Origin: Escherichia coli
GTDB taxonomy: Bacteria > Pseudomonadota > Gammaproteobacteria > Enterobacterales > Enterobacteriaceae
Assembly (NCBI RefSeq): GCF_030384885.1
Contig: NZ_CP128613.1
Length of the DNA stretch: 64,000 nt
Strand: one strand, 5' to 3'
How positions within the stretch are numbered: the first letter of the stretch is position 1; each line of letters starts with the position of its first letter. The position numbers and the translations under genes were made by a program. This document shows, in pieces, positions 18,630 through 31,297 of the stretch. The notes below the pieces were generated by a model. It was not told the DNA's origin and ran no database searches. It worked only from the letters and a program-made list of their open reading frames with translations.

Positions 18630-20773
18630 TGGAAATGGCATCAGCTTTTACTCTTAATGTTCGTCTGGACAACATTGCAGTCATCACCATCGACGTTCCC
18701 GGTGAGAAAATGAATACCCTGAAGGCGGAGTTTGCCTCGCAGGTGCGCACCATTATTAAGCAACTTCGCGAAAACAAAGAATTACGTGGAGTTGTATTTA
18801 TCTCAGCGAAACCGGACAACTTTATCGCCGGAGCAGACATCAACATGATCGGCAACTGCAAAACGGCGCAAGAAGCGGAAGAGCTGGCGCGGCAGGGGCA
18901 ACAGTTAATGGCGGAGATTCATGCTCTGCCTGTTCCGGTTATCGCGGCTATTCATGGCGCTTGCCTGGGGGGCGGGCTGGAACTGGCACTGGCGTGTCAT
19001 GGCCGCGTCTGCAGTGACGATCCTAAAACGGTGCTTGGCTTGCCGGAAGTTCAGCTTGGATTATTGCCAGGTTCAGGCGGCACCCAGCGTTTACCGCGCC
19101 TGATAGGTGTCAGCACAGCATTAGAGATGATCCTCACTGGAAAACAACTTCGGGCGAAACAGGCATTAAAGCTGGGGCTGGTGGATGACGTCGTTCCGCA
19201 ATCCATTTTACTGGAATCCGCCGTTGAGTTGGCAAAGCATGATCGACTATCTTCCCGCCCGCTACCTGTACGCGAGCGCATTCTGGCGGGGCCGCTAGGT
19301 CGTGCACTGTTGTTCAAAATGGTCGGCAAGAAAACAGAGCAGAAAACTCAGGGGAACTATCCGGCGACAAAACGCATTCTTGAAGTCATCGAAACCGGAT
19401 TAGCGCAAGGCACCAGCAGCGGCTATGACGCGGAAGCCCGTGCCTTTGGTGAACTGGCGATGACACCACAATCGCAGGCTCTGCGTAGTATCTTTTTTGC
19501 CAGTACCGAAGTGAAGAAAGATCCGGGCAGTGATGCTCCGCCTGCGCCGTTAAATAGCGTAGGGATTTTAGGCGGTGGCTTGATGGGGGGCGGTATTGCT
19601 TATGTTACTGCTTGTAAAGCGGGCTTGCCGGTCAGAATTAAAGATATCAACCCGCAGGGCATAAATCATGCATTGAAGTACAGCTGGGATCAGTTGGAGG
19701 GCAAAGTGCGCCGCCGACATCTCAAAGCCAGCGAACGTGACAAACAGCTGGCATTAATTTCGGGAACAACGGATTATCGCGGCTTTGCCCATCGTGACTT
19801 AATTATTGAAGCAGTGTTTGAAAATCTCGAATTAAAACAAAAGATGGTGGCGGAAGTAGAGGGAAATTGCGCCACTCATACCATCTTCGCTTCGAATACG
19901 TCATCTTTACCAATTAGTGATATTGCCGCTCACGCCTCGCGGCCGGAGCAGGTTATCGGTCTTCATTTCTTCAGCCCGGTAGAAAAAATGCCGCTGGTGG
20001 AGATCATTCCCCATGCGGGGACATCGGCGCAAACCATCGCTACAACGGTAAAACTGGCGAAAAAACAGGGAAAAACGCCAATTGTTGTGCGTGACAAAGC
20101 CGGGTTTTATGTCAATCGCATTTTAGCGCCTTACATCAATGAAGCTATCCGCATGTTGACTGAAGGTGAACGGGTTGAGCATATCGATGCCGCACTGGTC
20201 AAGTTTGGTTTTCCGGTGGGACCAATCCAACTTTTGGATGAGGTAGGAATCGATACCGGGACTAAAATTATTCCTGTACTGGAAGCCGCTTATGGAGAAC
20301 GTTTTAGCGCGCCTGCAAATGTTGTTTCTTCAATTTTGAATGACGATCGCAAAGGCAGAAAAAATGGTCGGGGTTTCTATCTTTATGGGCCGAAAGGGCG
20401 TAAAAGCAAAAAACAGGTCGATCCTGCTATTTATCCGCTGATTGGCGCGCAAGGGCAGGGGCGACTCTCCGCACCGCAGGTTGCTGAACGGTGTGTGATG
20501 ATGATGCTGAATGAAGCTGTACGTTGTCTGGACGAGCAGGTTATCCGTAGCGTGCGTGACGGGGATATCGGCGCGGTATTTGGAATTGGGTTTCCGCCGT
20601 TTCTCGGTGGCCCATTTCGCTATATCGACGCTCTCGGTGCGGCAGAAGTGGTTGCAATAATGCAACGTCTGACCGCGCGGTACGGTTCTCGTTTTACCCC
20701 TTGCGATCGTTTAGTTGAGATGAGCGAGCGTGGGGAAAGTTTTTGGAAAACAACTGCAACTGACCTGCAATAA
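18629..20773 (+). CDS. fadJ: Fatty-acid oxidation complex alpha subunit FadJ (enoyl-CoA hydratase / 3-hydroxyacyl-CoA dehydrogenase)
   Basis: 714 aa from [11 protein letters not shown]; ATG overlaps fadI stop (TAATG); ORF-track start 18581 is an upstream extension. Confidence 0.95.
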
Positions 20774-20909
20774 GAAGGTCAAAGTTATATGAATCCGCGC
20801 TGAATGGCGGAGTGTTGGTCAAAATGTAAACGCATATTGACTATACTTACGCCATTGAGGTAAAAAACAGCGTTTCATTCGGTGAATGGATAAGGCACAA
20901 TGCCGGCCA

Positions 20910-20946
20910 CCGTCGTGTTTCTCTGGTTTCAGATGAAACACGACGG
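20910..20946. other. Perfect 12-bp-stem hairpin (CCGTCGTGTTTC / GAAACACGACGG, 13-nt loop) about 30 bp upstream of sixA
   Basis: Seen directly; no U-run; function unknown (5'-UTR structure or protein site). Confidence 0.4.
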
Positions 20947-20975
20947 GCGAATCTGGTTAACAAAAGCGGTGCAAT

Positions 20976-21461
20976 ATGCAAGTTTTTATCATGCGTCACG
21001 GCGACGCAGCCCTCGATGCCGCCAGTGATTCGGTTCGTCCTCTGACCACTAATGGTTGTGACGAATCTCGCCTGATGGCGAACTGGCTGAAAGGTCAAAA
21101 AGTGGAAATCGAACGTGTTCTGGTGAGCCCGTTCCTGCGAGCCGAGCAAACACTGGAAGAAGTGGCGGATTGTATGGACCTGCCTTCCAGTGTAGAAGTT
21201 CTGCCTGAGCTAACGCCCTGTGGCGATGTTGGTCTGGTCAGTGCGTATCTCCAGGCACTGACCAACGAAGGTGTCGAGTCGGTACTGGTTATCTCCCACT
21301 TACCATTAGTCGGGTATCTGGTTGCCGAGTTATGTCCGGGCGAAACGCCGCCTATGTTTACCACTTCAGCGATTGCCAGCGTAACACTTGATCAAAGTGG
21401 AAACGGCCAATTCAACTGGCAGATGAGCCCGTGTAATCTGAAGATGGCAAAAGCAATTTAA
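20976..21461 (+). CDS. sixA: Phosphohistidine phosphatase SixA
   Basis: 161 aa, RHG motif at N-terminus. Confidence 0.93.
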   Translation: MQVFIMRHGDAALDAASDSVRPLTTNGCDESRLMANWLKGQKVEIERVLVSPFLRAEQTLEEVADCMDLPSSVEVLPELTPCGDVGLVSAYLQALTNEGVESVLVISHLPLVGYLVAELCPGETPPMFTTSAIASVTLDQSGNGQFNWQMSPCNLKMAKAI

Positions 21462-21470
21462 AAGCTCATA

Positions 21471-21508
21471 TGCCCGGTTGCGTACGCGTATACCGGGCAA
21501 ATTTTTTC
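21471..21508 (+). terminator. Rho-independent terminator after sixA
   Basis: GCCCGGT..ACCGGGC stem followed by AAATTTTTTC. Confidence 0.6.
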
Positions 21509-22006
21509 TGTCCTAATTGTGATCATATTTTACATATCACGAATTTTATTATCTTTCTTGTTATTGAAACTGGTAATAACACAGTGGAATAATGGTTTTG
21601 TATCTTGAATATAAATTAATTAATTTAATCAAGAATGAATCTTAGCAATAAATAATGCAAAATCATTATAAATTCTTTTAGTGGTTTTTATATCCAATTC
21701 ATTCATATCGGTTATGAAGTTTTTCTTTTTTTTGATGGCGCGCATGTATTTTTATTGAAAATCGAGAGAGATATTCTGGTTGTGTATTGATTAATTAAAT
21801 CTACATAAAGTCTTTAAGTATTACTACATTGCTTATTTTTAAAGATAAGACCAACATAACGACACACCAGAGAATATCTGTTTACATTCTATGATTATTT
21901 GGGACATATGATGTTCAATGGTTAACTAAAAGTGTCAGACATAATATATACAATAATATTATGTCAGTTGCTTGTATTATACATTTTAATGATTTAAGGA
22001 CAAATA

Positions 22007-22567
22007 ATGAGTAAGTTTGCCAAAACAGCCATTGCTGCCGCAATGGTGATGGGCGCAGTTGTCTCCACGTCAGCATTTGCTGCAGGCAACAACGGTACTG
22101 CACGTTTCTATGGCACCATTGAAGACTCTCCGTGCTCTATCGTTCCAGACGATCACAAACTGGAAGTGGATTTAGGCAACATTGGTGCAGAAGCACTCAA
22201 AAACAACGGGACTACCACGCCGAAAGACTTTCAGATTCGTTTACAGGACTGCGTATTTGATACCCAAACGAACATGGAAACGACATTCACCGGTAACGTT
22301 TCTACGGGAAACGAGAATTACTACACCATTTTTAATACCGATACAGGTGCTGCGTTTAACAATGTAAGCCTGGCGATTGGTGATAAGCAAGGTACTTCCT
22401 ATAAAAGCGGTGCTGGTATTAAACAGCCGATCGTAAATGACTCAGTAACCAATAAAGGCAAACCTAAACAGACGCTGAACTTCAAAGCCTGGTTAGTTGG
22501 TGCGGCTGGTACGCCTGACCTGGGTGGTTTTGAAGCAAATACCACCTTCCAGATTACCTATCTCTAA
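22007..22567 (+). CDS. yfcV: Fimbrial major subunit (Yfc chaperone-usher fimbriae)
   Basis: 186 aa, signal peptide, fimbrial-subunit C-terminal beta-strand ..TFQITYL. Confidence 0.85.
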   Translation: MSKFAKTAIAAAMVMGAVVSTSAFAAGNNGTARFYGTIEDSPCSIVPDDHKLEVDLGNIGAEALKNNGTTTPKDFQIRLQDCVFDTQTNMETTFTGNVSTGNENYYTIFNTDTGAAFNNVSLAIGDKQGTSYKSGAGIKQPIVNDSVTNKGKPKQTLNFKAWLVGAAGTPDLGGFEANTTFQITYL

Positions 22568-22576
22568 GGTAATTCA

Positions 22577-22607
22577 CCCCCATAGCATCTCGCTATGGGG
22601 GATTTTG
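22577..22607 (+). terminator. Hairpin plus U-tract after major subunit gene (intra-operon attenuator typical of fimbrial operons)
   Basis: CCCCCATAGC-ATCTC-GCTATGGGGG followed by ATTTTGG. Confidence 0.55.
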
Positions 22608-22639
22608 GCGAGTTTTTGGACTTATTATAATAATCACGG

Positions 22640-25288
22640 ATGAATACGTGTATGCCTGACCATTCCCTTTTCCGCTTACGGGCGCTTCCCTGGTGCGTTG
22701 CCGTGGTCATCTCTGGATGCCATATCAATGCCTGGGCTGATGAAGATATTCAGTTTGATTCCCGTTTTCTGGAATTAAAAGGCGACACGAAAATCGATTT
22801 GAAGCGATTTTCAAGCCAGGGTTATGTTGAACCGGGTAAATACAGTTTACAGGTTGAGGTCAATAAACAGCCGTTACCCGGTGAATATGATATTTACTGG
22901 TATGCTGCAGAAAATGATGCCAATAAGACTTACGCCTGCCTGTCGCCAGACCTGGTGGCACTGCTTGGTTTCAAAGAAGACATTGCGAAAAATTTGCAAT
23001 GGGTTCACGACGGTAAATGCCTTAAGCCAGGCCAATTTGACGGTCTGGAAATGCGTGTTGATTTAAGCCAGTCCGCGCTCCTTATCAGCTTGCCGCAGGC
23101 TTATCTTGAATACAGCGATGTCGACTGGGACCCTCCCTCGCGCTGGGATGATGGCATCTCAGGTTTAATTGCCGATTACAGCATCAACGCCCAAACCCGA
23201 CACGAAGAAAATGGCGGTGATGACAGCAACGATATCAGCGGCAACGGTACGGTTGGCGTTAACCTCGGGCCGTGGCGCTTGCGAGCCGACTGGCAGAGCG
23301 ATTATCAGCATACCCGCAGTAATGATGAAGAGACGGAAGACAGCACCGAAAGAAACTGGGACTGGAGCCGTTACTACGCCTGGCGCGCGTTACCGAGTCT
23401 GAAAGCCAAACTGGCACTCGGTGAAGATTACCTCGATTCCGATATTTTCGATGGCTTTAACTACATCGGCGGTAGTATCAGTACTGACGATCAAATGCTG
23501 CCGCCGAACCTGCGCGGCTATGCTCCGGATATTTCCGGCGTGGCCCATACGGCGGCGAAAGTCACCGTTAGCCAGGCCGGGCGCGTAATCTATGAAACCC
23601 AGGTGCCAGCCGGGCCATTCCGTATCCAGGATCTTGCCGATTTTAGCTCTGGTACGCTGCATGTGCGCATTGAAGAGGTGAACGGTCAGGTGCAGGAGTA
23701 TGACATCAGCACTGCCTCCATGCCGTTCCTGACTCGCCCGGGCCAGGTGCGCTACAAAATTATGATGGGGCGACCACAGGAGTGGGGGCACCATGTGCAA
23801 GGCGGGTTCTTTTCCGGTGGCGAAGCGTCCTGGGGGATAGCAAACGGCTGGTCACTGTATGGCGGGGCGCTTGGCGATGAAAATTACCAGTCAGCCGCGC
23901 TTGGGATTGGTCGCGATCTTTCCGTTTTCGGTGCGATGGCCTTTGATATCACCCACTCGCATACCCGACTTGACGATTCGACCGCTTACGGAAAAAGCAC
24001 GCTCGACGGTAACTCTTTCAGAGTCAGTTACTCCAAAGATTTTGATGAACTCAACAGCCGCGTCACCTTCGCCGGATACCGCTTCTCGGAAGAGAACTAT
24101 ATGACCATGAGCGAGTATCTGGACGCAAATGACAGCGCAATGGTTCGCTCTGGCAATGATAAAGAGATGTACACCGCCACCTATAACCAGAACTTCAGGG
24201 ATGCCGGTGTTTCTGTTTACCTGAACTATACGCGCCACACCTATTGGGATCGTGAGGAACAGACCAACTACAACGTAATGCTCTCCCACTATTTCAATAT
24301 GGGCGGCATTCGGAACATGAGTATCTCTCTGACCGGTTATCGCTACGAGTATGACGATAGCGCTGACAAAGGCGTCTACATCTCCTTAAGTATGCCGTGG
24401 GGCGATAGCAGCGTTGTGAGTTACAACGGCAACTACGGCAGCGGTTCAGACAGCAGCCAGGTAGGGTATTTCAGTCGTATCGATGACGCCAGTCATTATC
24501 AGATAAACGTGGGCAACAGTGAAAATCACTCCAGCGTGGATGGTTATTACAGCCGTGACGGTTCAATGGCCCATGTGGATCTCAATGCCAACTACCATGA
24601 AGGGCAGTACACCTCTGCCGGGTTGTCGCTACAGGGCGGCGCTACGCTCACGGCTCACGGTGGCGCGTTGCACCGTACTCAAAATATGGGCGGTACGCGA
24701 TTACTGATTGACGCTGACGGTGTCGCGGACGTACCGGTCGAAGGAAATGGTGCAGCGGTTTACACCAATATGTTTGGTAAAGCCGTCGTTGCCGACGTCA
24801 ATAACTACTACCGTAACCAGGCCACGATTGACCTGACCAGACTGCCAGAAGACGCCGAAGCCACGCAGTCAGTGGTGCAGGCGACGCTTACCGAAGGCGC
24901 CATTGGCTACCGTCAATTTGCGGTCATCAGTGGGCAAAAGGCGATGGCTGTCCTGCGCATGAGTGATGGCAGTTACCCGCCATTTGGTGCGGAAGTGAGA
25001 AACGAACATGACCAGCAGGTCGGCCTGGTTGATGATGACGGCAACGTCTATCTGGCTGGAGTAAAAGCGGGCGAACACATGCGTGTCTCATGGAATGGCG
25101 AACCCCACTGTGAGATTTCACTGCCAGACCCGCTGCCCGCCGACCTGTTCAACGGCCTGTTACTGCCGTGCAAGCAACAAGGCGCGGTGATGCCTGCGGC
25201 TCCGTCAGACATTAAACCGATGATTCAGGAACAGACGCAGCAGGTCACACCTGGCGCGGAACCCATGGCTATTTCAGCAAACCAATAA
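22640..25288 (+). CDS. yfcU: Fimbrial outer-membrane usher (YfcU-like), apparently intact
   Basis: Single uninterrupted 882-aa ORF with usher-family features. Confidence 0.9.
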   Translation: MNTCMPDHSLFRLRALPWCVAVVISGCHINAWADEDIQFDSRFLELKGDTKIDLKRFSSQGYVEPGKYSLQVEVNKQPLPGEYDIYWYAAENDANKTYACLSPDLVALLGFKEDIAKNLQWVHDGKCLKPGQFDGLEMRVDLSQSALLISLPQAYLEYSDVDWDPPSRWDDGISGLIADYSINAQTRHEENGGDDSNDISGNGTVGVNLGPWRLRADWQSDYQHTRSNDEETEDSTERNWDWSRYYAWRALPSLKAKLALGEDYLDSDIFDGFNYIGGSISTDDQMLPPNLRGYAPDISGVAHTAAKVTVSQAGRVIYETQVPAGPFRIQDLADFSSGTLHVRIEEVNGQVQEYDISTASMPFLTRPGQVRYKIMMGRPQEWGHHVQGGFFSGGEASWGIANGWSLYGGALGDENYQSAALGIGRDLSVFGAMAFDITHSHTRLDDSTAYGKSTLDGNSFRVSYSKDFDELNSRVTFAGYRFSEENYMTMSEYLDANDSAMVRSGNDKEMYTATYNQNFRDAGVSVYLNYTRHTYWDREEQTNYNVMLSHYFNMGGIRNMSISLTGYRYEYDDSADKGVYISLSMPWGDSSVVSYNGNYGSGSDSSQVGYFSRIDDASHYQINVGNSENHSSVDGYYSRDGSMAHVDLNANYHEGQYTSAGLSLQGGATLTAHGGALHRTQNMGGTRLLIDADGVADVPVEGNGAAVYTNMFGKAVVADVNNYYRNQATIDLTRLPEDAEATQSVVQATLTEGAIGYRQFAVISGQKAMAVLRMSDGSYPPFGAEVRNEHDQQVGLVDDDGNVYLAGVKAGEHMRVSWNGEPHCEISLPDPLPADLFNGLLLPCKQQGAVMPAAPSDIKPMIQEQTQQVTPGAEPMAISANQ

Positions 25289-25307
25289 CGTGATTAAGGA
25301 TTGATCC

Positions 25308-26060
25308 ATGTATACATTGACTCGCTCTGCAACACGCGCTGCCCCTGCGTTGGCGCTGCTGGTGGCGGCCACCAGTTTTACCACCCACGCATCGGTGACG
25401 CCCGACCGTACACGCCTGGTCTTCAATGAAGGCGACAAATCTATTAGCGTCACGTTGCGCAATAACGACCCGAAGCAGCCCTACCTGGCACAAAGCTGGA
25501 TGGAGGACGAAAAGGGCAACAAAATCAGCTCGCCACTTACGGTACTGCCGCCGGTACAGCGTATTGATGCGATGATGAATGGGCAGGTAAAAGTCCAGGG
25601 AATGCCGGATATCAACAAGTTACCCGCCGATCGTGAGAGTATGTTCTACTTTAACGTGCGTGAAATCCCGCCAAAATCGAACAAACCTAATACGCTGCAA
25701 ATTGCCCTGCAAACGCGTATCAAATTGTTCTGGCGACCAAAGGCACTGGCAAAAATTGACATGAGGGAGCCGTGGCAGCACAAGGTGACCTTAACCCGCA
25801 ATGGCCAGGCGTTCACCGTCAATAACCCCACGCCCTATTACGTGATTATCAGCAATGCCAGCACGCAGAAAAATGGTAATCCGGCAGCCGGGTTTACGCC
25901 GCTGGTCATGCCGCCGAAATCGTCCGCACCGTTGAATGTGAAGATGGACACTGTGCCGGTGCTGACTTACGTCAACGACTACGGCGCGCGATTGTCGCTG
26001 AACTTTAAATGCACTGGCAATAATTGCCAGGTGGATGCAGAGCAAAGCCGCAAAGGCTGA
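25308..26060 (+). CDS. yfcS: Periplasmic fimbrial chaperone (PapD-like)
   Basis: 250 aa with signal peptide and chaperone fold motifs. Confidence 0.9.
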   Translation: MYTLTRSATRAAPALALLVAATSFTTHASVTPDRTRLVFNEGDKSISVTLRNNDPKQPYLAQSWMEDEKGNKISSPLTVLPPVQRIDAMMNGQVKVQGMPDINKLPADRESMFYFNVREIPPKSNKPNTLQIALQTRIKLFWRPKALAKIDMREPWQHKVTLTRNGQAFTVNNPTPYYVIISNASTQKNGNPAAGFTPLVMPPKSSAPLNVKMDTVPVLTYVNDYGARLSLNFKCTGNNCQVDAEQSRKG

Positions 26061-26075
26061 TGCCGGGAGAGTCTT

Positions 26076-26591
26076 ATGAAATACACGTTTCTGGTGGGAA
26101 CGGGCATTTTTCTCCTGAGCGGCTGGCTGATGGGGAACCTTGCTGTGGCAGCGGAAAGTAAACCGGTGTTATTGACGTTGCGCGTTCTGGTGGATGGGCC
26201 GCCGCCCTGTTCCGTAAAGGGGAGCAATGTGCAATTTGGCGAAGTCTACATTAGCAAAATCAATGGCACGAATTACCGCACCACGCAGCCGCTTTATACC
26301 CTGAACTGTAGTAGCAGGGCTTCAGGTGTTGATGATCTGCGGATGCAGCTTAAAGGCACCACTACCGTGATTAACGGGGAAACTGTTATTGCGACCGAAA
26401 TACCCGGCCTGGGCATTCGCATTGAAAATGGTGCCGATAACTCTCTGTTCAGAGTGGGTGAAGGTAACTGGTCTGATTTTAATGTTAACCAGTTGCCCAA
26501 CCTCACAGCGGTGCCGGTAAAACAGAGCGGAGTGCAGCTTACGCCAGCGGAATTTAACGCCAGTATGACGATGGTGGTGGATTACCAATGA
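26076..26591 (+). CDS. yfcR: Fimbrial minor subunit
   Basis: 171 aa, signal peptide, C-terminal ..MTMVVDYQ donor-strand-type motif. Confidence 0.8.
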   Translation: MKYTFLVGTGIFLLSGWLMGNLAVAAESKPVLLTLRVLVDGPPPCSVKGSNVQFGEVYISKINGTNYRTTQPLYTLNCSSRASGVDDLRMQLKGTTTVINGETVIATEIPGLGIRIENGADNSLFRVGEGNWSDFNVNQLPNLTAVPVKQSGVQLTPAEFNASMTMVVDYQ

Positions 26592-27076
26592 AAAAACGCT
26601 TGTTACTTTTACTCTGCACCTGCGGTGGCGTTGCGCTGGCGGCTGACGATGACATCACCTTCCACGGTACGCTGGTGGCACCGCCTGCCTGTGCTATCAG
26701 CGATGGAAAGACCCTCGAAGTGGAATTTCGCGATCTCATCATCGACAGTATCAACGGAGACTATGGCCGCAAGGAAGTGGAATATAGTCTGAGCTGTGAC
26801 TCTGACACGCGCGATCCCGAGTGGGTTATGACACTCACCTGGACGGGTACGCAGACCGCCTACAATGACTCGGCTATCGAAACAGACGTTCCCGGCTTTG
26901 GTATTGAACTTCAGCACGATGGTCAGCCTTTTAAGCTGAATACTCCGCTTACTATTAACGCCACCGATTTTACCCAAAAGCCGAAGCTGGAAGCCGTGCC
27001 AGTGAAGTCAGCCGATGCGGTGCTGAGTGATACCACGTTTTCAGCCTATGCAACATTGCGGGTGGATTATCAATGA
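26588..27076 (+). CDS. yfcQ: Fimbrial minor subunit
   Basis: 162 aa, C-terminal ..ATLRVDYQ; start overlaps yfcR stop. Confidence 0.8.
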   Translation: MKKRLLLLLCTCGGVALAADDDITFHGTLVAPPACAISDGKTLEVEFRDLIIDSINGDYGRKEVEYSLSCDSDTRDPEWVMTLTWTGTQTAYNDSAIETDVPGFGIELQHDGQPFKLNTPLTINATDFTQKPKLEAVPVKSADAVLSDTTFSAYATLRVDYQ

Positions 27077-27612
27077 AGACAGAACGTATTTATTCGCTCG
27101 GCTATGGGCTGTTAGCGGGCCTGTTGTTGATCGGCAGCACGCGTGCCCTGGCCGTGGACAACAACCTGCATTTTTACGGCAATTTAATTAGCCGCTCTTG
27201 TACGCTGGTGGTTGATAGCGGAAATCTGGCCGAAGTCCATTTTCCAACTATCAGTCGTCGGGATCTTATGGCTGCGGGGGAGTCTGCGCACGTCCCGGTG
27301 GTGTTTAAGCTGAAAGATTGTAAGGGACCTGCGAGTTATCAGGTCCAGGTGACCCTTACCGGTACGGAAGACAGTGAACAGCCCGGTTTCCTGGCGCTGG
27401 ATACCACATCAACCGCGCAGGGCGTGGGGATTGGGATGGAAACGACTGACGGTGTACGGGTGGCAATTAACGACCCAACCGGGGCGAAATTCACGCTTAG
27501 CGATGGCAGTAATGACATTAATTTCAGGGCCTGGTTACAGGCGAAAAGCGGTCGGGAAGTGACGATGGGCGATTTTACCGCCAACCTGACGGCGACCTTC
27601 GAGTATATCTAA
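27073..27612 (+). CDS. yfcP: Fimbrial minor subunit
   Basis: 179 aa, C-terminal ..ATFEYI; start overlaps yfcQ stop. Confidence 0.8.
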   Translation: MKTERIYSLGYGLLAGLLLIGSTRALAVDNNLHFYGNLISRSCTLVVDSGNLAEVHFPTISRRDLMAAGESAHVPVVFKLKDCKGPASYQVQVTLTGTEDSEQPGFLALDTTSTAQGVGIGMETTDGVRVAINDPTGAKFTLSDGSNDINFRAWLQAKSGREVTMGDFTANLTATFEYI

Positions 27613-27613
27613 T

Positions 27614-28474
27614 ATGAAAAAAATACGATTTCTGCTTTGCGTCATGCTGGCGCTGTGCTTTAGCCAGGGAGCCCAGGCGAAACTGGGGACAACCTATAAT
27701 AACGTGTACATCTATTATGGGAGTGTTACAGGTTTCGCAAAAATTGACTTCTTCCTTGATTTGTTGACGACTAATGGGGTTTATCATGGGGAGTATTATC
27801 AGAATATACCGCTTGGCGTTGAGGTAGGAAATCTCCCTAATCAGTCATGGACCGGACCTGGAAACATACCCGCACCCAAAATCACTGTCCTTACAGGCGA
27901 TTATACCGATTTGTATAAGTGCCCGGGGGTTCTCAATATTGATCCAGATACCAACTGGAGTTGCTCATATTTAAAACTATCCATAGAGGTTGACGGCTCG
28001 GCAGAGACGTGTCCGTGGATGGTGGGTTTTACGGCAAACAGTAGTGTAAATTTTTATCTTTTACATAAGGTGGAATACTACAGGGGGCCGACAAGCTATA
28101 CAACAGTGTGTCCGGGTGAGCCATTAACAAACTATGATATCTCCTGGAGTGACAGCCGGGTTGAACACAGTCAAATTTTGAATCTGCAATCGACAGGTTC
28201 AGTCATTGAAAAAAACTTATCTACCTATCTGATGAAAGATGGTCAGCTTTGTGATGGCAGTAAAATAGATGAGCGCGGTGCGTATTGCCGCTTTGTCAGT
28301 CAGCAAATCACGTTTACGGCTGAAGGGTGCGATGACGCCAGAGTAACAGTCGCGCCAACGCAGCACCCTATTACCGACCGGCAACTGCACGATATGTTGG
28401 TGCGTGTTGATACCAGTAACAGGCAGGCAATAGACTCCACGTGTCGCTTTCAGTATGTATTGAATATGTTGTAG
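27614..28474 (+). CDS. yfcO: Putative fimbrial tip protein / adhesin-like secreted protein YfcO
   Basis: 286 aa with signal peptide, Cys-rich; last gene of operon. Confidence 0.75.
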   Translation: MKKIRFLLCVMLALCFSQGAQAKLGTTYNNVYIYYGSVTGFAKIDFFLDLLTTNGVYHGEYYQNIPLGVEVGNLPNQSWTGPGNIPAPKITVLTGDYTDLYKCPGVLNIDPDTNWSCSYLKLSIEVDGSAETCPWMVGFTANSSVNFYLLHKVEYYRGPTSYTTVCPGEPLTNYDISWSDSRVEHSQILNLQSTGSVIEKNLSTYLMKDGQLCDGSKIDERGAYCRFVSQQITFTAEGCDDARVTVAPTQHPITDRQLHDMLVRVDTSNRQAIDSTCRFQYVLNML

Positions 28475-28528
28475 CATTATTTCACCGACCAGTTAGCTGG
28501 TCGGTGAAAGTGCATGTTGATAATGATG

Positions 28529-29080
28529 TCAGGGCAACTCAGGCGGCAACCACTCTTCCACTTCAATCAACACTAATAAAGCTGCATCACCGCCGTACTC
28601 TTTCGGTGCCTGGTGAAACGCCATCACATGGGGATGTTGCGCCAGCCACAGCGGCGTTTGCTGCTTCAAAATATGCTTACCATGACCATGCATCACGCAG
28701 GCGCAAAACACATGTTCACGACGGCAGGCGGCAATCAGAGCCCCAAGTTCCTGCTTAGCTTGCAATTGCGTCAAACCGTGTAAATCCAAAAACAATTCCG
28801 GCGAATAATCGCCGCGGCGCAGTTTCTTCGCTTCAAAATGGCTTACATCCGGACGGACATATTTCACCGGACCTTCGGTATTCAATAACGGTTGAAACTC
28901 ATCGGAGAAATAATGGCTGGCATCGGCCTGTTCCTGAATTAACCGCTTGACCGGTACTTCGCTAATTTTTTTACGCAGCGGCCGATGGACAATGGTGTCC
29001 TGCTTTATCTGGCGGGTTCCCGCCATCAACTGGCGAAAAAGCGCCTGGTCCTCCTCGCTAAGTGATGATTTCTTTTTCAT
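28529..29080 (-). CDS. smrB: Smr-domain ribosome-rescue endonuclease SmrB (YfcN)
   Basis: 183 aa, Smr domain region ..LDLHGLT.. Confidence 0.9.
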
Positions 29081-29244
29081 TTACATCTCTCATTTCTAAT
29101 TTTCCTACAGTTTACCCGACTCGTCGTCTAATCGATCGTTTTAAACGTATTTTTCCTCACTCACCGCGCGTGAATGCTGATTTATCGTCATCTTCATGGC
29201 AAACTAGCCGCCGAAATTAATGCGACCATGCCCTGGAGGAATAC

Positions 29245-30177
29245 GTGGATAAAATTTTCGTTGATGAAGCAGTAAATGAGCTGCAAACCATTCAGGACAT
29301 GTTGCGCTGGTCGGTGAGCCGCTTCAGCGCGGCAAATATCTGGTACGGCCACGGCACCGATAACCCGTGGGATGAAGCCGTACAACTGGTGCTGCCATCG
29401 CTCTACCTGCCGCTGGATATTCCGGAAGATATGCGCACCGCGCGTCTGACTTCCAGCGAAAAACACCGTATTGTTGAGCGCGTGATCCGCCGCGTCAACG
29501 AACGCATTCCGGTGGCCTACCTGACCAACAAAGCCTGGTTCTGCGGTCATGAATTTTACGTCGATGAACGTGTGCTGGTGCCGCGCTCGCCGATTGGTGA
29601 ACTTATCAACAATAAATTTGCCGGACTCATCAGCAAGCAACCGCAACACATTTTAGATATGTGCACCGGAAGCGGCTGTATTGCGATTGCCTGCGCTTAT
29701 GCCTTTCCGGAAGCAGAAGTCGACGCGGTAGACATCTCTCCTGACGCGCTGGCGGTTGCTGAACAGAACATCGAAGAACATGGTCTGATCCACAACGTCA
29801 TTCCGATTCGTTCCGATCTGTTCCGGGACTTGCCGAAAGTGCAGTACGACCTGATCGTCACTAACCCGCCGTACGTTGATGCGGAAGATATGTCCGACCT
29901 GCCAAATGAATACCGTCACGAGCCGGAACTGGGTCTGGCATCTGGTACTGACGGCCTGAAACTGACGCGTCGTATTCTCGGTAATGCGGCAGATTACCTT
30001 GCTGATGATGGCGTGCTGATTTGTGAAGTCGGCAACAGCATGGTACATCTTATGGAACAATATCCAGATGTTCCGTTCACCTGGCTGGAGTTTGATAACG
30101 GCGGTGATGGTGTGTTTATGCTCACCAAAGAGCAGCTTATTGCTGCACAAGAACATTTCGCGATTTATAAAGATTAA
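29245..30177 (+). CDS. prmB: Ribosomal protein uL3 glutamine N5-methyltransferase PrmB
   Basis: 310 aa with NPPY motif. Confidence 0.93.
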
Positions 30178-30211
30178 GTAAACACGCAAACACAACAATA
30201 ACGGAGCCGTG

Positions 30212-31297
30212 ATGGCTGGAAACACAATTGGACAACTCTTTCGCGTAACCACCTTCGGCGAATCGCACGGGCTGGCGCTCGGCTGCATCGTCGATGGTGT
30301 TCCGCCAGGTATTCCGCTGACGGAAGCGGACCTGCAACACGATCTCGACCGTCGTCGCCCTGGGACATCGCGCTATACCACCCAGCGTCGTGAGCCAGAT
30401 CAGGTCAAAATTCTCTCCGGTGTTTTTGAAGGCGTTACTACCGGCACTAGCATTGGTTTACTGATCGAAAACACTGACCAGCGTTCTCAGGATTACAGCG
30501 CAATTAAAGACGTTTTCCGTCCAGGCCATGCCGATTATACCTACGAACAAAAATATGGCCTGCGCGATTATCGCGGCGGCGGTCGTTCTTCCGCTCGCGA
30601 AACCGCCATGCGCGTTGCAGCAGGGGCGATTGCCAAAAAATATCTCGCTGAGAAATTTGGTATAGAAATTCGCGGCTGCTTGACCCAAATGGGCGACATT
30701 CCGCTGGAAATCAAAGACTGGTCTCAGGTCGAGCAAAATCCATTCTTCTGCCCGGATCCGGACAAAATCGAAGCCTTAGATGAACTGATGCGCGCGCTGA
30801 AAAAAGAGGGCGACTCTATTGGCGCGAAAGTCACCGTGGTGGCCAGTGGCGTCCCTGCCGGACTTGGCGAGCCGGTCTTTGATCGCCTTGATGCTGACAT
30901 CGCCCATGCGCTAATGAGCATTAACGCGGTGAAAGGTGTGGAAATTGGTGATGGTTTTGACGTGGTAGCGCTGCGTGGCAGCCAGAACCGTGACGAAATC
31001 ACCAAAGACGGTTTCCAGAGCAACCATGCGGGCGGTATTCTCGGCGGCATCAGCAGCGGGCAGCAAATCATTGCCCATATGGCGCTGAAACCGACCTCCA
31101 GCATTACTGTGCCTGGACGCACCATTAACCGCTTTGGCGAAGAAGTTGAGATGATCACCAAAGGCCGTCACGATCCTTGTGTTGGGATCCGCGCGGTGCC
31201 GATCGCGGAAGCGATGCTGGCGATCGTTTTAATGGATCACCTGTTACGGCAACGGGCGCAAAATGCTGATGTGAAGACTGATATTCCACGCTGGTAA
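30212..31297 (+). CDS. aroC: Chorismate synthase
   Basis: 361 aa from [20 protein letters not shown]. Confidence 0.95.

Follow-up and report, generated by a model that had tools for sequence, protein, structure and literature searches.

The interval between sixA and smrB in Escherichia raises a question of both function and regulation: does the chaperone-usher fimbrial operon located there, yfc, constitute a working system, and what do the palindrome and the GC-rich hairpin on either side of its major-subunit gene do? This question was addressed in a 64,000-nucleotide (nt) stretch of Escherichia coli contig NZ_CP128613.1 (hereafter, the window), in which sixA (20976-21461) and the convergent smrB (28529-29080) bracket seven contiguous, intact open reading frames (ORFs) on the same strand. 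Both the ORF list and Pfam agree with the seven-gene yfc operon proposed in a preliminary description of this sequence. The operon is a Yfc, Stf-like, pi-clade chaperone-usher locus that has already been catalogued and is carried by almost every E. coli. In our judgement, the probable full explanation is that it represents the cryptic clade I allele of this core Escherichia fimbria, expressed according to the working model set out below.

Four proteins with the Pfam Fimbrial domain are encoded alongside an usher and a chaperone, as expected for the pilin-fold subunits of chaperone-usher operons, and the last four genes are tightly packed, with two stop/start overlaps and one 1-nt gap (Table 1). 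The usher is indeed one intact ORF of 882 amino acids (aa), as described beforehand, and carries PapC_N (38-184), Usher (202-760) and PapC_C (771-827) domains, all scoring far above the Pfam gathering scores; its start in the Prokaryotic Genome Annotation Pipeline (PGAP) annotation is at 22652. It matches NCBIfam model PRK15284 with 1805 bits (cut-off 972). Among solved structures, the usher matches PapC with 741 bits (E 1.6e-221) and FimD with 260 bits (E 1e-76), and the chaperone matches PapD (E 6e-57) better than FimC (E 1e-25). The chaperone-PapD alignment places DRTR on DRTR and QTRIKLFWRP on QTKIKLFYRP, showing the conserved cleft Arg/Lys pair, and we take Arg8 and Lys112 of PapD to lie within these motifs. 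Since the usher and chaperone are much nearer to PapC/PapD than to FimD/FimC and the best NCBIfam matches are to Stf, the operon is assigned to the pi clade and to the Stf/Yfc type.

Yfc and Salmonella Stf are orthologous, and Yfc shares the pi clade with Pap. The Salmonella stf operon, presumably at a different chromosomal position from the yfc locus, supplies the best NCBIfam matches as counterparts of the window proteins (StfA, usher PRK15284, StfD, StfE, StfF and StfG), with scores below the equivalog cut-offs except for the usher subfamily model. In the scheme of Wurpel et al., Yfc is one of the core-associated chaperone-usher fimbriae and has a fixed locus (PMC3559732); the window operon qualifies as Yfc both by locus position and by the grouping of its usher with YfcU, as judged from identity and NCBIfam. 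The same sixA-smrB locus was found in K-12 and in nine other annotated strains compared, and K-12 MG1655 carries the same seven genes in the same order.

Table 1 Coordinates of the features of the yfc locus in the window, in 5' to 3' order (dG, folding free energy; z, z-score of the fold).
Feature	Position	Strand	Details
sixA intrinsic terminator	21468-21508	+	Arms 21468-21478 ATATGCCCGGT / 21492-21502 ACCGGGCAAAT, then TTTTTT
AT-rich yfc leader	21510-22006		25% GC; probably H-NS bound; predicted to be mostly transcribed as a long 5' untranslated region (UTR)
Best sigma-70-like match, candidate distal promoter	21564-21593	+	TTGAAA-18-TGgAATAAT, 10/12 + TG
Stretch aligned to the K-12 SELEX promoter	21598-21626	+	Poorer match, TTGTAT-17-TAATTT
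Two complementary conserved blocks, possible helix around ~35 variable nt	21867-21876, 21912-21921	+	CCAnAGAATA, TRTTCAATGG; RNAalifold
Conserved leader stem-loop	21930-21973	+	~16 pairs, two mismatches, palindrome at apex; dG -12.6, z -2.6
Perfect palindrome	21938-21965		GACATAATAT-N8-ATATTATGTC; 10-bp arms, ends 41 nt before ATG
Shine-Dalgarno sequence	21996-22000	+	AAGGA, 6 nt before ATG, within invariant block TTTAAGGACAAATAATG
Major fimbrial subunit, YfcV/StfA-like	22007-22567	+	186 aa; Pfam Fimbrial; 83% aa identity to K-12 YfcV
GC-rich hairpin	22577-22607 (stem-loop 22577-22601)	+	CCCCCATAGC-N5-GCTATGGGGG, 10 bp; dG -23 kcal/mol, z -4.6; then ATTTTGG
Outer-membrane usher, YfcU/StfC-like	22640-25288	+	882 aa, single ORF; PapC_N, Usher, PapC_C
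Periplasmic chaperone, YfcS/StfD-like	25308-26060	+	250 aa; PapD_N, PapD_C
Minor subunit, YfcR/StfE-like	26076-26591	+	171 aa; Pfam Fimbrial; NCBIfam StfE match below cut-off
Minor subunit, YfcQ/StfF-like	26588-27076	+	162 aa; Pfam Fimbrial; start overlaps preceding stop (ATGA)
Minor subunit, YfcP/StfG-like	27073-27612	+	179 aa; Pfam Fimbrial; start overlaps preceding stop
YfcO/StfH-family putative tip adhesin	27614-28474	+	286 aa; DUF2544; PGAP 'StfH/YfcO family fimbrial adhesin'
Perfect 13-bp hairpin between convergent yfcO/smrB stops	28480-28509		Probable bidirectional terminator ending the operon

The window usher aligns with K-12 YfcU over its full length (83-84% aa identity), and both the usher and the chaperone gene are intact. 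The disruption of the K-12 usher, which the preliminary description had mentioned, was found in both alignment and annotation and is a nonsense mutation, not a frameshift: the annotation marks K-12 yfcU as a pseudogene that carries an internal stop, and the alignment shows TAG as codon 579 opposite Tyr580 of the window. The K-12 61-mer spanning this codon was detected in unchanged form in 363 out of 5,426 complete genomes, an upper bound for the lesion (at most 7%), indicating that an intact usher is the norm. Strain 2452, with one mismatch to this 61-mer, reads TAC at that codon. Other strains have unrelated, sporadic lesions: HM670 has a frameshifted usher gene, strain 2452 another usher stop, 06-00048 a yfcV frameshift and HH97 a yfcO stop. 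The K-12 internal stop in the current RefSeq contrasts with the statement of Wurpel et al. that yfc is 'intact in all genomes' examined (PMC3559732), whose criterion of insertions and truncations seems to have missed point nonsense mutations.

To place the operon among Escherichia lineages, it and its flanks were compared with 5,425 E. coli genomes. The flanks are 91-93% identical to those of 5,403 genomes, and only 21 genomes reach at least 95% identity for the flanks and likewise 21 for the operon. Two of the best matches, 2013C-4282 and EC42405, belong to Escherichia cryptic clade I (Okuno et al., PMC10100065). By sequence, the window operon is therefore assigned to a cryptic clade I allele and not to the K-12 type. 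The strain 2013C-4282 differs from the window over the 7-kb region only by a 1-bp leader indel at 21656 (AATAAT vs AATAAAT); this site was rejected as a slippage switch because the indel is not in a long homopolymer. The left flank is identical to that of turkey isolate 162.2 and not to that of 2013C-4282, and the source strain of the window matches no listed genome exactly. The flanks (18700-21461 and 28475-31000) are only 91-93% identical to typical E. coli, against a published clade I-E. coli average nucleotide identity above 95.9%, so that the yfc neighbourhood is more diverged than the genome average.

The operon itself is more diverged still, with DNA ~75-79% identical to ordinary E. coli and flanks at ~92%. 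Compared with K-12, the window has the same sixA-smrB locus, gene order, conserved leader blocks, ribosome-binding site and hairpin after yfcV, but differs in nucleotide identity (~78%), synonymous divergence, the nonsense codon in the K-12 usher, leader length (545 bp vs 680 bp in K-12) and the apical sequence of the leader hairpin. Protein identities to K-12 are 83% for YfcV and YfcS, 79% for YfcQ and 73% for YfcP, with the lowest for YfcR (58%) and YfcO (43%), vs 96% for SixA and 98% for SmrB. The synonymous substitution rate (dS) relative to K-12 is 1.1-1.8 or undefined (saturated) for yfc genes and 0.22-0.66 for flanking genes, indicating that the yfc allele lineages are much older than the split of clade I from E. 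coli, or were imported. The ratio of non-synonymous to synonymous rates (dN/dS) of yfc genes relative to K-12 is 0.06-0.10; within clade I and relative to K-12, the major subunit, usher and chaperone have values of 0.05-0.17, a range that indicates maintained function. By this measure the structural genes are under strong purifying selection, and all five clade I loci examined retain seven intact genes.

Several observations concern the exchange of yfc alleles. In strain 06-00048, whose flanks are those of E. coli sensu stricto, the operon is of a related haplotype that shares 86-91% nucleotide identity with the window between the usher and yfcP. In the type strain of Pseudocitrobacter vendiensis (NZ_CALSBS010000014, 127553-130777), yfcV and the usher match window 21967-25064 with 96.9% identity and clade I strain N96 with 99.1%; the first homologous position is window 21967, immediately 3' to the palindrome, and over the preceding 127 nt the leader is a different one that retains the conserved blocks. 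Either the allele has moved recently between the genera or the assembly is chimeric. In addition, the dS of smrB is 0.66 relative to K-12 and 0.91 relative to 06-00048, with prmB and sixA about threefold lower (0.22-0.33), which suggests raised linked divergence beside the hypervariable adhesin gene.

The adhesin gene is the most variable part of the operon by several measures. A search for YfcO/StfH proteins returned 131 clusters at 90% identity; the eleven closest are 71-100% identical to the query, and nearly all others listed are 39-55% identical. Among the matches listed, the closest named relative outside the query cluster is from E. ruysiae (75%). Column identity is 33-62% over residues 1-165 and 67-89% over residues 166-286; comparing adhesin types with each other gives identities of 24-40% for the N-terminal and 63-70% for the C-terminal domain. 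Within clade I, where the flanks are 98-100% identical, 15 genomes carry the adhesin type of the window and 6 carry the EC42405/N96 type, which is only 42-43% identical to it, with the break in similarity at the start of the adhesin gene. Judging from these alignments, the adhesin gene is swapped within clade I. Among close alleles, the N-terminal domain has a dN/dS of 0.44-0.61, and both its dN/dS and its dS exceed those of the C-terminal domain. The AlphaFold2 model has two beta domains with a confidence score (pLDDT) of 87, and no specific solved homologue was found. Salmonella StfH, of the same family, behaves as the adhesin and also has a variable N-terminal half (PMC5343171). The label of tip adhesin is based on gene position, the two-part conservation architecture and these Salmonella experiments.

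Upstream of yfcV, the leader had been described as a 545-bp AT-rich region, and this holds: 21462-22006 has 27.2% GC, its first ~45 nt being the sixA terminator, and 21501-22000 is the lowest-GC 500 bp of the window (25.0% vs a mean of 50.5%). The palindrome reported in it is also present as described. When the leader was shuffled 2000 times with its dinucleotide content kept, 73 shuffles (3.7%) contained a perfect inverted repeat of at least 10 bp with a loop of 3-20 nt, so that the palindrome alone is only mildly unusual and counts as weak evidence, and the 86 nt around it fold with a z of only -1.7. The palindrome is exact in all five clade I loci and only there; it is degenerate in B2-type leaders, and other dyads occur elsewhere.

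To examine this region in a wider sample, leaders were collected from E. coli genomes, other Escherichia species, Pseudocitrobacter and 120 metagenome loci, giving 37 distinct haplotypes. In aligned leaders, conserved blocks are separated by a variable stretch that contains the dyad. One long hairpin is present at the position of 21930-21973 in all 37 haplotypes (dG -8.7 to -19.5), with apical sequences that cannot be aligned between allele groups. Pairs in the base helix vary in both partners (alignment columns 19-70: A-U 16, G-C 16, G-U 1; 20-69: C-G 18, U-G 17, U-A 2; 35-66: U-A 11, C-G 10, U-G 7). Overall, 85% of cells in the helix are paired vs 32-51% in slid-partner controls, none of 500 shuffles reaches the observed score, and intermediate pair states (G-U, A×C) can be read within the B2-type leader group. 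The leader hairpin is thus seen, in these alignments, to covary and to be conserved by pairing rather than by sequence, and the palindrome is best read as its apex and not as an isolated operator-like site. Selection on pairing would imply that this region of the leader is transcribed. The two complementary blocks further upstream may form a second helix with 99% of cells paired, but the blocks are invariant and hence show no covariation. In two metagenome leaders, L032 and L042, the conserved TTCAATGG block is missing and the sequence farther upstream than about -60 is unrelated; they may be further recombinant or rearranged leaders.

Downstream of yfcV, the hairpin itself stands as first described, but its U-tract has only four U and is not conserved; with this tail the site fails the T-run rule of the terminator scanner. 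Across 129 loci, 15 distinct stems were found at this position, each of 9-14 GC-rich pairs, and compensatory double changes have arisen independently at least four times. Tails vary from UUUUUU to none, with 4-6 U in the alleles of clade I, 06-00048, E69 and E1V33. These compensatory changes and the variable tail indicate that the stem is under selection and the U-run is not. A label such as mRNA 3' stabiliser or partial terminator may be more accurate than attenuator.

The leader was also inspected for promoters and regulatory sites. The candidate distal promoter is a consensus match only. The number of sigma-70-like matches in the region equals the shuffle expectation. In K-12, a yfcV promoter bound by RpoD (TTGAAA-17-TATAGT), identified by systematic evolution of ligands by exponential enrichment (SELEX), was flagged for H-NS (PMC3946193), and 383 nt separate the end of its -10 from the yfcV ATG. 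The corresponding spacer in K-12 is also listed among the H-NS-bound 'promoter islands' (PMC3661553). From composition and from these K-12 data (PMC3946193, PMC3661553), we infer that H-NS binds the window leader. The high-affinity H-NS motif TCGATAAATT has one weak site with two mismatches in the leader and shows no enrichment there. No acceptable proximal -35/-10 pair was found near the palindrome by inspection, no regulator gene is present in or adjoining the operon in the ORF list, no Fur box lies within three mismatches anywhere in the 64-kb window, and Rfam gave nothing relevant over 21300-28700. The leader contains no regulator-like ORF, only short AT-rich ORFs, including an antisense 62-aa ORF and a 21-aa GTG ORF across the palindrome; the latter was rejected as a leader peptide, since stop codons interrupt it in the aligned B2-type allele. 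A Pap-type Dam/Lrp switch was rejected given a single GATC in the leader (21521) and no papI/papB-type regulator ORF, and a fimS-type invertible promoter given only a 16-nt, 75% inverted repeat (21522-21537 / 21897-21912) and no adjacent recombinase gene. The spacing of the K-12 dyad ATTGA-N5-TCAAT was unsuitable, on inspection, for an FNR/CRP-type reading.

On these grounds, a working model of expression is proposed. One or more weak promoters ~400 nt upstream would start transcription, and the AT-rich leader would be silenced by H-NS under laboratory conditions. The resulting long 5' UTR would carry the stem-loop at 21930-21973, ~35 nt before the start codon. This stem-loop and the hairpin after yfcV may bracket a stable monocistronic major-subunit mRNA, stop part of transcription, or both, so that YfcV would be produced in large excess over the usher, chaperone, minor subunits and adhesin. 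The packed and overlapping downstream genes would be translated from read-through transcripts ending at the hairpin shared with smrB, and, at the usher, donor-strand exchange would join the subunits into a fimbria tipped by the YfcO-type adhesin. Expression, H-NS silencing and mRNA processing are in this model deduced from sequence features, their conservation and the protein families.

The model borrows from papA. As described in PMC5927463 (citing Baga 1988, and Bricker and Belasco 1999), RNase E cleavage takes place on the upstream side of a 5' hairpin, and both ends of the resulting papA mRNA are protected. The 5' stem-loop and 3' hairpin around the major-subunit gene of the window match this arrangement by analogy: a conserved stem-loop precedes the gene as in papA and is presumably transcribed. 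The operon further resembles Pap in its usher and chaperone, nearest to PapC and PapD, and in its order of major subunit, usher, chaperone, minor subunits and adhesin. In contrast to Pap, the operon has no papI/papB, no paired GATC and no PapH-like gene between major subunit and usher, and its adhesin shows no sequence relationship to PapG. The extremely AT-rich upstream region is common to the window leader and to the H-NS-silenced cryptic chaperone-usher operons and promoter islands of K-12. A more specific proposal, which we put forward tentatively and rate somewhat below an even chance, is that the yfcV leader may be an undescribed, structurally conserved cis-acting RNA module in which a stem-loop at -77 to -34, together with the 3' hairpin, yields a stabilised monocistronic pilin mRNA, and that the sixA-smrB interval may, in connection with this, be an exchangeable adhesin-diversity locus. 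The latter part is based on allele lineages older than the species, an adhesin repertoire of over 100 types and what looks like at least one transfer into Pseudocitrobacter.

Other explanations for the paired structures have to be considered. The dyad at 21938-21965, with the other dyads of other alleles, could be a DNA operator for a dimeric transcription factor near a proximal promoter rather than an RNA element. Its perfect 10-bp arms and 8-bp spacer, exact in all clade I loci and nominally rarer than expected by chance, would suit such a site, and trans-acting control of the leader exists, as overproduction of TosR, a PapB-family regulator, induces yfcV in CFT073 (PMC5956150). However, the dyad sequence varies between haplotypes while pairing is kept, which fits a structure and not a shared protein site, and neither a neighbouring regulator gene nor an acceptable -35/-10 nor a Fur box was found; an operator is therefore considered improbable. 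Still less likely, in our view, is that the palindrome is a functionless chance feature of very AT-rich DNA: the shuffle frequency and the modest fold of the surrounding 86 nt would allow it, but chance does not readily account for a hairpin at the same position in every haplotype, with covarying pairs beneath unalignable apices. For the hairpin after yfcV, the rival view is that it acts primarily as a partial intrinsic terminator, a true attenuator that sets the ratio of major to minor subunits by stopping transcription and not by protecting RNA. The GC-rich 10-bp stem with its dG of -23 and the 4-6 U that follow it in several alleles favour this view, and it has a real though less than even chance of being right; the B2-type (ATTCAACAC) and E. 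albertii (CTCAATATA) alleles nevertheless keep the stem by compensatory changes and have no U-tract, and the window site does not satisfy the T-run rule. Termination and protection are not mutually exclusive.

A broader alternative is that the operon is a silent relic whose intactness is incidental. Yfc has been described as cryptic in laboratory culture (PMC3559732), and the lesions in K-12, HM670, 2452, 06-00048 and HH97 listed above show that its genes are sporadically inactivated. Against this stand the low dN/dS of the major subunit, usher and chaperone, the intact genes of all sampled clade I loci, RNA structures kept by compensatory changes, and reports that yfc genes aid bladder-cell binding and colonisation (PMC5343171, PMC8069529), which leave a relic very unlikely. 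The earlier suggestion that the operon is functional but cryptic is an inference that the intact ORFs and purifying selection support. The reading of a functional clade I Yfc operon with an RNA-bracketed major-subunit gene has its own difficulties, all of which weigh against it. The U-tract after yfcV is weak in the window and absent in the B2-type and E. albertii alleles, making termination uncertain. The 37 leader haplotypes can be sorted into some seven groups of relatives and also served to derive the structure, so that the covariation statistics overstate independence; moreover, the leader hairpin is AU-rich and of moderate stability (z -1.3 to -4.8). Finally, K-12 yfc is reported in PMC5343171 to have yielded no visible fimbriae when its expression was forced, though the K-12 usher is broken.

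Elsewhere in the window, a low-GC (31-33%) insert of ~1.7 kb (13430-15090) lies between mlaA (12629-13384) and fadL (15141-16487), which are spaced by ~60 bp in HM670. It contains one minus-strand ORF of 399 aa (13566-14765) with no Pfam or PADLOC match, and perfect hairpins lie on either side of it (13394-13425 and 15092-15126).

In summary, the operon sequence was already annotated in RefSeq, and the locus is ordinary and of modest interest; what this analysis adds is the clade I assignment, intactness as the norm, the hypervariability of the adhesin and the conserved leader hairpin. K-12 is not well suited as a model for Yfc, since no more than 7% of complete genomes share its usher nonsense codon, and negative results on Yfc fimbriation in K-12 should be read with that lesion in mind. 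The highly polymorphic locus with its hypervariable adhesin head bears on the use of yfcV as a marker of uropathogenic E. coli and on host tropism. The conserved 5' and 3' hairpins offer a handle on how expression of a 'cryptic' fimbria may be shaped post-transcriptionally and, if the RNA module reading is true, the papA mechanism would also operate in a core 'cryptic' fimbria of nearly all Escherichia.

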